Shown: positions 45,073-47,521 of the stretch, one piece after another
Layout of the letters: the number at the start of each line of letters is the position of its first letter
How positions within the stretch are numbered: position 1 is the stretch's first letter
Assembly (NCBI GenBank): GCA_002413045.1
Contig: DHWF01000031.1
Span: forward strand, 149,241 to 213,240
Direction: 5' to 3'
Source of the DNA: Chloroflexi bacterium UBA5189
Lineage (GTDB): Bacteria; Chloroflexota; Limnocylindria; Limnocylindrales; CSP1-4
Length of the DNA: 64,000 bases
Position numbers and translations under genes: made by a program
The notes under the pieces: generated by a model
The model's database searches: none
What the model was told of the DNA's origin: nothing
What the model saw: the letters and a program-made list of their open reading frames with translations, nothing else

Positions 45073-45588
45073 CTAGGCGACGGGGGTGGATGCCTCCTGG
45101 GCGAGGAGGCGAGCACCGGGGAAGAAGTGGCCCAGCATCAGCGTCGAGGTCACGCGATCGACGGCGTACCGGTTCACGTGGATGTACGGCCGCGCGGCGG
45201 TCGGGGCGCTGTCGTGGGTCACGAGCTCGATCGTGACGTCGCTCAGGCCGACGAACGAGCCGCTCGGGCGGGCGATGGCGCGGGCGGGGTCGAAGCCGGG
45301 GTGCGTCGCGAGCCGGCCGGAGACGCGATACGGCCCGACGTCGAGCGAAACCGAGTACCAGGCCATGTGGATCTTGAGCTCCGGCTCGGCCGTGACGATG
45401 AGCAGGATGTCGTCGGGGGCGACCGTGACGCTGCCGCGATGTGCAGCGCGGGACCCGTCGAGGGGATACCAGCGGACGTCCTCGATCGTGAACGGGCCGG
45501 CCAGATCCGGGCCGTCGTTGGTCAGCGGGATGCGGCTTGACGTCCCGACGAGCACCCCCGCCGGCGTGAAGATCTCGACCGCTGCCAC
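45073..45588 (-). CDS. Hypothetical protein
   Basis: 171-aa ORF with balanced, beta-rich composition. No motif recognised. Divergent from the GreA-fusion gene. Confidence 0.6.
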   Translation of the reverse strand: MAAVEIFTPAGVLVGTSSRIPLTNDGPDLAGPFTIEDVRWYPLDGSRAAHRGSVTVAPDDILLIVTAEPELKIHMAWYSVSLDVGPYRVSGRLATHPGFDPARAIARPSGSFVGLSDVTIELVTHDSAPTAARPYIHVNRYAVDRVTSTLMLGHFFPGARLLAQEASTPVA

Positions 45589-45686
45589 GACTCCCCCCGA
45601 AGCGTTCCCGCAGGATGTCGCGCGGGCGCGCGAACGCGAACCACCCGCCGGTACCGACTTGCAGGTCCGGTGGTACCGTCCGGCCG

Positions 45687-46982
45687 GTGACTCCCACCCA
45701 CCCCGGCGCGGCCGATCTCATTCGATCGATCGGCCTCCTTGCCGACGGCCCCGTTCGCTGGGGCGCCACGGTCCCCGCGCGGCGAGGCGGCGTCTACGTC
45801 GTGGAGCTCGGGGTGCCGCTGCCGCAGGCGCCCGTCGAGATGACCCGCGTCGGCAAGTGGCTCGAGACGGTCCCCGGGCTCCGCCTCGACGGCGAACCCC
45901 CGACGTCGAAGGCACTCCATGCCCGGCTCCTGTCCCTGTGGTGGCCGGATGCGACGGTGCTGTACGCCGGTGCCACCGCCGGCTCGATCGGCGGCCGGGT
46001 CGCCGCGCTCCTGGCGCACGTACCCGGCGAGCGCCAGCCGCACGCGGACGGCCAGTGGCTCCACCTCCTGCGCAACCTCGATGGGATCGGCCTCCGGATC
46101 TGGTGGGCCGAGACGAAGGCGCCCGAGGAATCGCTCGACGCCCTGTTCGATGCCTTCGGCGCGGCCACCGGCCTCCAGCCCATGCCCGGCCGGCCCGCCG
46201 GCGCCCTCGCGCTGCCCTGGGCCAACACCCGCCGCCCCACCGGTGAGCGGCAGGCGCATGGGATCGTTGGCGCCATCCTGCCCGAGGCGCCGAAGGCTCC
46301 CGAGCCGCCGCGACACGTGGTCGAGGTAGCGCCCGGGGACGCGGAGGGCGCGTGGGCCGAGGATCGCGGCGACGTCACGACCCGACGCGGGCCAAGCGGC
46401 GCGTCGCCCGCGCGGACACGTTCAACACGCCCTGCAGCCCGGCCGGCCCCGGGTCCGCAGCGCGCCCCGGCCGTCGCCCGGTCGTCCACCGGTGCTCGGG
46501 TCGTCCGCGGCTCGCGCGCCGCCGCGCCGGAGCCGATCCAGCTGTCCAAGGGTGCCCTCGACCGGATGACCACGGAGCTGGACGAGCTGACGCGCGTCAA
46601 GCGCCGCGAGGTGGTCGCCCGCATCAAGTCCGCGCGCGAGCACGGCGATCTCAAGGAGAACGCGGAGTACCACGCGGCGCGCGAGGAGCAGTCGTTCCTG
46701 GAGGGCCGGGTGCAGGCCCTGGAGGACCGCATTCGGCGCGCCGTCGTCGTTGACGAGGTCGCCACGGGCAAGGTCATCATCGGCTCGAAGGTCATCGTCG
46801 AGATCGGCGGCGACGAGCTCGAGTACACGATCGTCGGCAGCGCGGAGGCGGATCCGGCGAAGGGTCGGCTGAGCATGGCCTCGCCGGTCGGTGCGGCGCT
46901 CCTCGGGGCCGTCGCCGGCGCCGAGGTCGACGTTCGAACGCCGCGCGGCGCGGTTCGCTACAAGGTGCTCTCGGTCGATTAG
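45687..46982 (+). CDS. greA: GreA-type transcript-cleavage factor domain fused to an N-terminal GIY-YIG-like domain through an Arg/Pro/Ala-rich linker
   Basis: C-terminal 155 aa is canonical GreA (ARIKSAREHGDLKENAEYHAAREEQSFLEGR...GKVIIGSKV...GRLSMASPVGAALLG). One uninterrupted frame from 45615. N-terminal GVYVVE...VLYAGATAGSIGGRVAALLAH. Start GTG 45687 or 45615. Confidence 0.7.
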   Translation: MTPTHPGAADLIRSIGLLADGPVRWGATVPARRGGVYVVELGVPLPQAPVEMTRVGKWLETVPGLRLDGEPPTSKALHARLLSLWWPDATVLYAGATAGSIGGRVAALLAHVPGERQPHADGQWLHLLRNLDGIGLRIWWAETKAPEESLDALFDAFGAATGLQPMPGRPAGALALPWANTRRPTGERQAHGIVGAILPEAPKAPEPPRHVVEVAPGDAEGAWAEDRGDVTTRRGPSGASPARTRSTRPAARPAPGPQRAPAVARSSTGARVVRGSRAAAPEPIQLSKGALDRMTTELDELTRVKRREVVARIKSAREHGDLKENAEYHAAREEQSFLEGRVQALEDRIRRAVVVDEVATGKVIIGSKVIVEIGGDELEYTIVGSAEADPAKGRLSMASPVGAALLGAVAGAEVDVRTPRGAVRYKVLSVD

Positions 46983-47521
46983 GGCCGCGGCAGGCCGGCG
47001 ACGAACGCCGCGACGCGGTCGAGCACGTCGGGGAGCACGGGTTTCATCGTGTGGCCGAGGCGCGGATACGTCACCAGCTCGGCGTGGGGCAGGCGCTTGA
47101 CGGCGGCGCGGAGCAGGTCGAGCCGGGCGAATGGGTCGGCCTCGCCGGACAGCAGCAGGACCGGGCACGTGATGTCGGGGAAGTGGGCCGTCCGCTCGGC
47201 GGCTCGATCGACCCGGCCCGGCGGATGGACCGGAAAGCAGAACAGGACCAGGCCGGCGTAGCTCGCGCCCGCCGCTGCCGCGAGGGTCGACACGCGGCCG
47301 CCGTAGGATTGGCCGCCGGCCACCGTGCCGGCGCCGTCCGGCACCACGGAGCGCCAGACAGGGACCGCGTCCTCGGCTTTGCGGACCGGGAGGTCGACGG
47401 CGTCCGCGAGCAACCCTCGCGTCCGGAGGCCGTCGACGAACGGCGCCATGGTCGCGGCGTTGCCGCTCGCCCCATGCCCAAGGTAGATGTGCAGCGGCGA
47501 GGCGGCCGCCGTGCCGGCCAC
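46979..47521 (-). CDS. Alpha/beta hydrolase (dienelactone-hydrolase/KANL3-like)
   Basis: GQSYGGRV nucleophile elbow. LLLSGEADPF. C-terminal His (GHTM). GTG 47521 is 1 nt after the permease stop. Confidence 0.75.
   Translation of the reverse strand: MAGTAAASPLHIYLGHGASGNAATMAPFVDGLRTRGLLADAVDLPVRKAEDAVPVWRSVVPDGAGTVAGGQSYGGRVSTLAAAAGASYAGLVLFCFPVHPPGRVDRAAERTAHFPDITCPVLLLSGEADPFARLDLLRAAVKRLPHAELVTYPRLGHTMKPVLPDVLDRVAAFVAGLPRP

Follow-up and report, generated by a model that had tools for sequence, protein, structure and literature searches.

GreA-type factors are the standard bacterial means of rescuing backtracked RNA polymerase, and the links of stalled polymerase to DNA repair and conflict resolution are an active question. 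One gene of Chloroflexi bacterium UBA5189 brings this question into a single polypeptide: what does a GreA do at the C-terminal end of a much longer protein, and what kind of domain stands in front of it? The gene lies in a 64,000-nucleotide stretch of contig DHWF01000031.1 (GenBank assembly GCA_002413045.1, positions 149,241 to 213,240 of the forward strand), which we call the window and to which all coordinates refer unless another locus is named. We find that it is a real fusion in one polypeptide, encoded by one gene, and that this fusion belongs to the core genes of a single family-level lineage within the Limnocylindria, where it usually stands beside a normal short GreA. It is a conserved, publicly under-annotated fusion built from two known kinds of module, namely a complete GreA and, N-terminal to it, a domain of very probable GIY-YIG descent (Table 1).

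The frame at 45615-46982 (+) is the only long frame at the locus with coding-like composition. The G+C content at its third codon positions (GC3) is 0.84-1.00 throughout, except at codons ~251-295, where GC3 falls to 0.68-0.76 and the content at second positions (GC2) climbs to 0.92-0.96 because of the Arg, Pro and Ala codons used there. This dip and peak correspond to the Arg/Pro/Ala-rich linker with weaker third-position GC bias described in the initial annotation. The same annotation had reported a single fused frame, with no start codon belonging to GreA itself and no stop back to 45615, and both the 455-codon frame and 118 of the 120 listed homologues agree with it. In-frame start candidates are ATG 45615, GTG 45687, GTG 45801/45813, ATG 45840, GTG 45957, ATG 46182, and GTG 46317. 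Downstream of GTG 46317, only CTG 46542 occurs before ATG 46566, which already lies within the first GreA helix; with no ATG, GTG, or TTG between GTG 46317 and ATG 46566, a separate GreA cannot start here. These two flanking codons were themselves considered as starts of a separate GreA and rejected, since GTG 46317 sits within the conserved segment that follows the N-terminal domain and ATG 46566 would take ~10 residues off the start of the Gre domain.

An assembly frameshift or missed stop at 46300-46550, named from the outset as a point to check, was also looked for. Contigs from the Logan collection that were assembled from two soil-metagenome runs span 45600-47000 and 45644-47000 with 0 differences and 0 gaps, though these runs may include the source sample and give weak independent support; homologues share the single frame as well. 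Among the relatives, the loci L080 (Chloroflexi bacterium GWC2_73_18) and L125 have the domain and the Gre part in different frames, and in L125 the domain itself is also split over two frames. These breaks are either sequencing indels in a GC-rich region or real pseudogenisation.

A search with residues 1-240 returned 496 proteins. GreA Pfam domains are present in 118 of the 120 listed, with both domains in 117. These proteins measure 379-605 aa, mostly 405-485 aa, and are named by their sources as coming from metagenome-assembled genomes (MAGs) of Chloroflexota, Limnocylindria, or 'Dormibacteraeota'. When a profile of the N-terminal domain was run against 401 Chloroflexota genomes, it matched every one of the 24 genomes listed for the window's own family (the window's genome plus 23 sampled relatives), mostly in single copy, together with one other genome of the class; elsewhere only weak partial matches were obtained. 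No listed genome of f2 or f46, both sister families, contains the domain, nor does any of f3 apart from that one. Two or more GreA-domain genes were counted in 29 of 40 matching genomes sampled from the family, usually as one short frame and one of at least 400 codons. GreA-fused forms were found only in Chloroflexota records, mostly labelled Limnocylindrales, Chloroflexia, or Chloroflexi. The names given to these proteins conceal the fusion, as they refer to GreA only and the domain family has no curated model: of the 34 listed homologues that have a protein name, all are called 'transcription elongation factor GreA' except one partial 'hypothetical protein'. As a side observation, two genomes (G216, loci L031/L051, and G263, loci L033/L052) hold two copies of the domain each, and the copy at L052 has an in-frame TGA.

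Only the closest relatives share the order of genes around the fusion, and no conserved operon partner was seen at the loci compared. A function deduced from an operon was therefore rejected, the neighbours not being conserved beyond those relatives, and the closeness to a repeat-bracketed island, which had been given weight in the initial annotation, means little for the same reason.

That the last ~155 codons encode GreA is borne out by matches above cut-off to both Gre Pfam domains, to TIGR01462 (155.4 bits, cut-off 139), and to NF001263 (150.8-154.9 bits, cut-off 145). The tip motif HGDLKENAEY is present, and its D345 and E348 do not vary among 54 fused proteins. AlphaFold2 (AF2) predicts two long helices (312-342 and 350-375) followed by a beta-rich domain, with a predicted local distance difference test score (pLDDT) of at least 90. 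The canonical GreA of the same genome is a 154-aa protein encoded on another contig that scores 183 bits on NF001263; the fused Gre part shares 47% identity with it over the full length, and the coiled coil aligns without gaps. When the PDB was searched with a sequence profile of the fusion protein, only Gre-family chains were returned, via the Gre part.

The domain in front of GreA is less readily named. It has no match in Pfam, NCBIfam, PHROGs, or PADLOC, and PHROGs, NCBIfam, and PADLOC scans of the domain together with its unfused relatives gave no family. It is nevertheless a large family, with at least 720 clusters at 50% identity in an exhaustive HMMER search, and residues conserved across it are G59, Y61, Y117, G119, R128, H143, G146, one Glu, N204, R212, and H215. 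From an alignment of 81 sequences, AF2 models the domain with a pLDDT of 93 as a helix, a strand, a second strand (GVYVVE), two inserted helices, a strand (VLYAGA), a helix bearing R128, a short helix, a strand (RIWWAE), and a long helix.

A GIY-YIG-type signature had been tentatively proposed for this region, and part of it stands. By hhalign, the GVYVVE strand aligns with PGcYvl of GIY_YIG_2, and VLYAGATAGSIGGRVAALLAH aligns to vYvGKA..lr.RV of UvrC and lYVGKAEDSI.KRV of GIY_YIG_2. Together with the AF2 model, these alignments make GVY and LYAG...R...H real GIY and YIG/Arg elements. The acidic stretch WWAETKAPEE, which had been read as the third element of the signature, is not the catalytic position. 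The gap between the two half-motifs, correctly described as longer than in canonical enzymes, is accounted for by an inserted pair of helices of ~50 residues that is seen in both AF2 and hhalign.

The superfamily was defined as the Pfam clan that includes PF01541, PF20815 (GIY_YIG_2), PF19239, and PF10544. In hhalign, the broad domain alignment (A2) matched the GIY_YIG_2 family alignment with a probability of 70% (P 4e-5) and the UvrC N-terminal domains from relatives' genomes with a probability of 86% (P 5e-6). An alignment of the unfused subfamily (A4) gave 78% (P 1.8e-5) and 91% (P 8.9e-7), respectively; with A4 the GIY strand was aligned too, and the ~50-residue insertion appeared as a gap. 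The observed scores of 41.9 and 38.4 were reached by none of 100 column-shuffled templates (13.3 +/- 2.8 and 13.5 +/- 2.9), and reversed templates yielded probabilities of at most 3%. Matches of single sequences are weak. Among 33 members of the family, GIY_YIG_2 was matched by 5, GIY-YIG by 3, GIY_YIG_domain by 2, and T5orf172 by 1, and four unrelated families each weakly match one member among the same 33. All GIY-YIG matches of relatives stay below threshold, the best having an E value of 0.003 and 18 bits vs a cut-off of 22.4.

Several results count against a GIY-YIG origin. The window protein itself gave 0 matches to GIY-YIG models even at E values up to 10. A Foldseek search with the domain model found no match with an E value below 0.3 in the PDB or BFVD, and the GIY-YIG enzymes R.Eco29kI (E 1.5) and phage endonuclease II (E 6) appear within the noise. 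Support for the assignment thus comes from profile-profile statistics and from the logic of the motifs. N204 of the LPWAN motif is nearly invariant and lies ~30 residues past the Glu column, and its pairing with the GIY-YIG Asn in hhalign is not convincing. With all of this weighed, we regard GIY-YIG descent of the N-terminal domain as very likely. Separately, a same-family genome (G124, locus L012, 676-1812) encodes a 378-aa protein with tandem GIY-YIG-like motifs (YVFSEGEAIIYVGES...RV..H and LYILRDSKGKALYVGET...RL..H), in which a GIY_YIG_2 match covers the region of the second motif. This match was considered as an orthologue of the fusion and rejected, as the protein is unrelated.

The alignments also locate the catalytic position. 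The family-invariant Glu pairs in hhalign with the Glu of LE(G/A)NL in UvrC, which we take to be E76 in T. maritima numbering and the equivalent of I-TevI E75, and the conserved Glu of GIY_YIG_2 falls in the same column. In the window protein this residue is Leu174. Three groups can be told apart at this column. A group of 123 unfused proteins has the Glu throughout, with Y61 in 105, Y117 in 119, R128 in 122, and N204 in 111. A set of 44 fused proteins also keeps it (44/44) while the surrounding pocket erodes, with Y61F in 19, H143 kept only in 26, and N204V in 10. The window's own clade has Leu in 122 of 122 fused sequences, and its other pocket columns are nearly unchanged: Y61 in 121, R128 in 122, H143 in 122, E171 in 121, E172 in 122, D175 in 122, N204 in 121, and R212 in 122. 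In a FastTree phylogeny of 300 domains, the unfused proteins are outgroups and the GreA fusions are nested inside, with the Leu174 sequences forming one clade of 128 (support 0.90). This topology is consistent with a single Glu-to-Leu change.

Classical GIY-YIG catalysis thus looks dispensable after fusion, because the Glu was lost in the Leu clade and other pocket residues were eroded in the fused clades that keep it. The near-invariant pocket in the window's clade hints at a constraint that may still act on it, a point that is no more than suggestive because the clade is shallow. Cleavage coupled to RNA polymerase, which the initial annotation had inferred from the architecture, becomes less likely for this copy, since the catalytic Glu is Leu174 in the protein and is replaced in its whole clade.

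Relatives without GreA give an indication of where the domain came from. Unfused relatives of ~200 aa are scattered over Bacillota, Bacteroidota, Actinomycetota, Acidobacteriota, Proteobacteria, Planctomycetota, and some archaeal MAGs, with examples in Syntrophomonas zehnderi OL-4 and Sedimentibacter (Bacillota), Butyricimonas muris (Bacteroidota), and Mycolicibacterium pulveris, Paeniglutamicibacter, and Solirubrobacterales (Actinomycetota). The genomic context was examined at four loci. In S. zehnderi OL-4 (locus L057, 3920-6063), the unfused gene directly follows a prophage terminase large-subunit gene and starts an islet with a GC3 of 0.29-0.42, vs 0.57-0.68 in the flanks, that also holds a DUF1413/NikA-like gene; the islet has the appearance of a moron or of a free-standing homing-endonuclease-type insertion. 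At the other loci the gene lies beside an integrase, beside a WYL protein and a DUF4011/AAA_11 helicase, and beside a UvrD/PD-(D/E)XK protein. These contexts point to mobile or helicase/nuclease-rich DNA.

Other relatives carry a different C-terminal partner. Proteins of ~328 aa at L106 (3992-4975), L121 (3992-4957), L093 (3995-4978), and L076 (3992-4972) consist of the same domain, a Ser/Thr/Pro/Arg linker, and a conserved C-terminal module of ~100 residues (RVT..D...G.IRIP...WDPR...RSGV..VGR), and their hosts are Solirubrobacterales, Paeniglutamicibacter, a deltaproteobacterial MAG, and a Chloroflexia MAG. In some Limnocylindria, a paralogue with a Glu-keeping domain ends in a helical module of ~80 residues instead of GreA (L091, 3917-5014; L118, 3920-5023; L099, 3890-4861; L039, 2-1270), and P0228, a protein related to these paralogues, has a faint HARE-HTH match. 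Neither the ~80- nor the ~100-residue module has a Pfam match or a PDB sequence match, and our guess is that both could be DNA-binding domains. Enzymes of the I-TevI type consist of a catalytic GIY-YIG domain, a linker, and a DNA-binding domain. The same modular layout, in which a catalytic domain is tethered to a C-terminal module that varies, suggests that GreA may have replaced a targeting module in Limnocylindria. The N-terminal domain would then be a domesticated nuclease module, taken from a family that is tied to mobile elements and whose unfused members keep the full catalytic motif set.

Domain and GreA are joined by a disordered tether of 50-130 residues. Its variable part, the linker proper, spans 21-86 residues among the 54 fused proteins, with a mean identity of 0.32 and a positive net charge in 53 of them. 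In the full-length AF2 model, the confident domains are 30-235 and 308-454, residues 245-302 have a pLDDT of 40-44, and the predicted template modelling score (pTM) is 0.51, from which no fixed domain arrangement would be expected but rather beads on a string. The better conserved segment directly after the N-terminal domain may be a docking motif. A similar sequence, VVEVPAGAADGA, is found in the Limnocylindria paralogues with the other C-terminal module (L091 and L118).

It is possible to combine these elements into a working model. In known structures of Gre factors with polymerase, the Gre N-terminus lies at or outside the mouth of the secondary channel, so a domain tethered to it could reach nucleic acid near the polymerase. 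The GreA part of the fusion would dock in this channel like an ordinary GreA and would probably still stimulate transcript cleavage, and the basic tether of 50-130 residues would give the nuclease-derived domain access to DNA or RNA in the vicinity of a polymerase that has paused or backtracked. There the domain could serve as a sensor that binds nucleic acid or lesions, or could be an enzyme whose chemistry has changed. We lean, with moderate confidence, towards such a binding or sensing role or an altered chemistry and away from a classical Mg-dependent GIY-YIG endonuclease, because the Glu is Leu while Y61, R128, H143, E171, E172, D175, N204, and R212 are nearly invariant. Some considerations detract from this preference. 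That the fused GreA binds RNA polymerase, and that the domain in front of it touches nucleic acid, are both inferred. The window's clade is shallow (at least 65% identity), and its near-invariant pocket partly reflects low divergence. Furthermore, loss of the Glu does not prove inactivity, and invariant acidic residues (E171, E172, and D175) surround its position on the same helix.

This last point leads to the alternative that survives best, a nuclease that is still active. E171, E172, or D175 would have taken over metal binding, and the tethered domain would make incisions at backtracked or lesion-stalled complexes, either nicking DNA or cutting RNA, so that one polypeptide would carry out a form of transcription-coupled cleavage. 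The rest of the pocket is kept in the window's clade (Y61 121/122, R128 122/122, H143 122/122, N204 121/122) along with the three acidic residues, the earlier-branching fused proteins retain the Glu in 44 sequences, and the partner in the alignments is the UvrC incision domain. We nonetheless hold this alternative to be unlikely, since the metal-binding Glu is the one residue invariant in all unfused proteins (123/123) and is Leu here, and since the fused clades that do keep it erode the pocket (Y61F 19/44, N204V 10/44, H143 kept in 26/44), which suggests that catalysis is dispensable. A fuller version would make the protein a working transcription-coupled surveillance or incision factor, in which the UvrC-related domain recognises damaged DNA, an R-loop, or extruded RNA at a stalled polymerase and perhaps cuts via E171/E172/D175. 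We consider this something of a long shot. If true, such a factor would link polymerase rescue to nucleic-acid processing in one polypeptide, in a family that also keeps a plain GreA and UvrC.

It is also conceivable that the N-terminal domain no longer handles nucleic acid and has become a protein-interaction or regulatory module, for auto-inhibition, localisation, or contact with another polymerase surface. Loss of the catalytic Glu would agree with such a role, the motif PGDAEGA...TTRR after the domain could be a docking peptide, and a normal GreA is already present in the genome, so the fused copy may be specialised. However, the residues of the phosphate/nucleic-acid pocket (R128, H143, R212, H215, and Y61) are still conserved, nearly all homologues have a basic linker, which is what a tether with affinity for nucleic acid would be expected to show, and AF2 predicts no confident contact between the domains (pTM 0.51, linker pLDDT ~42). 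We therefore think this role quite improbable, and the binding or sensing role described above remains our preferred account.

A function in anti-phage defence or biological conflict, in which the Gre module would find polymerases hijacked by an invader and the N-terminal effector would attack, is very improbable in our estimation. Effector-TPR-GreA/B-C-PIN systems with DNase effectors have been described (PMC8195603), and the unfused relatives examined adjoin mobile-element and helicase/nuclease genes. Against this, the fusion is present in 24/24 listed family genomes, mostly in single copy, and was found only in Chloroflexota records; its GreA is complete, coiled coil and acidic tip included, and Pfam finds neither TPR nor PIN; PADLOC gives no match; and the catalytic Glu of the supposed effector is lost. 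Finally, the notion that a missed stop or frameshift in the GC-rich linker artificially joined two adjacent genes is effectively refuted and has practically no probability left, for although two public assemblies of relatives (L080 and L125) show linker-region frame breaks and wrong frames stay open at high GC, the same single frame is found in more than 100 independent assemblies, both domains share one frame at 29 loci from named genomes, the contigs of the two soil runs are identical, a separate GreA would have no start codon, and coding-like GC3 continues through the linker.

The true start of the gene is probably GTG 45687, giving a protein of 431 aa, instead of ATG 45615. This is indicated by homologues that do not have the first ~24 residues of the query (coverage is ~90% of the 240-residue query in most of those listed), by the close relative L030 (91% identical, same genus), in which a 1-nt indel falls between the counterparts of ATG 45615 and GTG 45687, and by the predicted disorder of residues 1-24 (pLDDT ~50 in AF2). 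Directly 5' of GTG 45687, a stretch of ~30 nt (window 45655-45686; L030 1455-1490) shows a single difference between the two genomes, and the stretch preceding it diverges. It may be a conserved translation-initiation or 5' untranslated region element, and no Shine-Dalgarno-like GGAGG is evident within it. A scan for promoters and terminators around the fusion gene found nothing, and none of the RNA runs searched contains the fusion sequence.

On its downstream side, the stop codon of the fusion overlaps that of a convergent alpha/beta-hydrolase gene (46979-47521, minus strand), and no terminator-like hairpin was detected between the two genes. The divergent upstream neighbour (45073-45588, minus strand) is a 171-aa open reading frame with no Pfam match that is 68% conserved in L030 of the same genus and 41% at the distant Limnocylindria locus L109, where it also lies upstream of the fusion.

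Table 1. Features of the fusion gene, in window coordinates, with the basis of each assignment.
Feature	Coordinates	Strand	Basis or remark
Whole open reading frame, 455 codons from ATG 45615	45615..46982	+	stop TAG 46980-46982; N-terminal domain, linker, and GreA in one frame
Probable true start codon GTG (residue 25; product 431 aa)	45687..45689	+	homologue coverage, upstream indel in L030, low pLDDT
N-terminal domain (residues 30-235), very probably divergent GIY-YIG-type	45702..46319	+	AF2, hhalign with shuffle controls
'GIY' strand GVYVVE, residues 59-64 (G59, Y61)	45789..45806	+	G59 invariant, Y61 Y or F in family; predicted beta strand
Insertion of ~50 residues (two helices) between GIY and YIG strands	45807..45953	+	AF2; gap opposite GIY_YIG_2 in hhalign
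'YIG' strand and Arg helix VLYAGATAGSIGGRVAALLAH, residues 115-135 (Y117, G119, R128)	45957..46019	+	hhalign to UvrC and GIY_YIG_2
Loop HADG (H143, G146; family motif PHxGGxWL)	46041..46052	+	conservation
Third strand LRIWWAE and helix PEESLDALFDAF (E171, E172, D175)	46095..46169	+	AF2; the three acidic residues invariant in clade
Codon of Leu174, position of the GIY-YIG metal-binding Glu	46134..46136	+	hhalign to Glu of UvrC LE(G/A)NL
Conserved tail LPWANTRRPTGERQAHG (N204, R212, H215)	46212..46262	+	P201, A203, and N204 nearly invariant family-wide
Semi-conserved post-domain segment (V/I)VE(V/L)PxGDAEGA...TTRR	46296..46388	+	mean identity 0.55; pLDDT low
Disordered Arg/Pro/Ala-rich basic linker, net charge +9	46389..46526	+	pLDDT 40-44
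GreA N-terminal coiled coil (residues 309-378)	46539..46748	+	PF03449 GreA_GreB_N, 88.5 bits (cut-off 24.5)
Acidic tip D345...E348 (GDLKEN), equivalent of E. coli GreA D41/E44	46647..46658	+	alignment to 1GRJ
GreA C-terminal globular domain (residues 384-454)	46764..46976	+	PF01272 GreA_GreB, 72.1 bits (cut-off 26.9)

The fusion amounts to a natural experiment on the scale of a lineage, in which a nuclease-derived domain was hard-wired to GreA, kept over ~40 sampled genera, and later changed at its canonical catalytic residue. It would show how a nuclease module of mobile elements can become domesticated when a polymerase-binding domain takes the place of its DNA-binding one. It can also show whether a Gre factor delivers a second activity to the polymerase, a matter that is directly testable with recombinant protein.

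Compared with E. coli GreA (1GRJ), the C-terminal 150 residues share the coiled coil, the GDLKEN tip, and the globular domain. The fused protein differs from an ordinary GreA in its N-terminal extension of ~300 residues, made up of the folded nuclease-derived domain and the basic tether, and in being a second, paralogous copy beside the 154-aa GreA. Longer proteins with GreA at the C-terminus are also represented by NF004969 (Chlamydia, 'transcript cleavage factor/unknown domain fusion protein') and NF011309 (spirochaetes), in which the Gre alignment occupies profile positions 574-703 of 718 and 755-900 of 906, respectively. Only the GreA part of our protein matches these models, with 60.5 bits (cut-off 697) and 101 bits (cut-off 714), and the N-terminal regions are unrelated. 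With respect to the GIY-YIG superfamily (UvrC-N and GIY_YIG_2), the order of GIY strand, YIG strand, Arg helix, third strand, and Glu helix is the same. The domain described here deviates in the ~50-residue helical insertion that separates GIY from YIG, in a Glu-to-Asn spacing of ~30 residues instead of 12, in being recognised by no curated model, and, in the window protein, in having Leu at the catalytic Glu. The unfused and differently fused relatives resemble I-TevI-type homing endonucleases in that a catalytic domain is likewise joined by a flexible linker to a C-terminal module.

The initial annotation knew of no architecture that tethers a nuclease-like module to a secondary-channel factor. 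This may hold for the specific pairing, as a search of the available literature library for GreA together with GIY-YIG found no paper, but not for the general idea. Kaur, Burroughs, Iyer, and Aravind (eLife 2021; PMC8195603) described conflict proteins in which N-terminal effectors, including REase and HNH DNases, are combined with TPR repeats, a GreA/B C-terminal domain, and PIN. These systems occur widely among bacteria and sporadically among archaea, have variable effectors, and are mostly stand-alone genes (PMC8195603). Both they and the fusion described here join an N-terminal effector position to a Gre-derived polymerase-binding module in one polypeptide, and both are mostly without conserved neighbours. 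In contrast to the effector-TPR-GreA/B-C-PIN systems, however, the Limnocylindria protein lacks TPR and PIN, contains a whole GreA including the catalytic tip, and carries a single fixed domain at its N-terminus, and it is core to one bacterial family, occurring in 24 of the 24 listed genomes.

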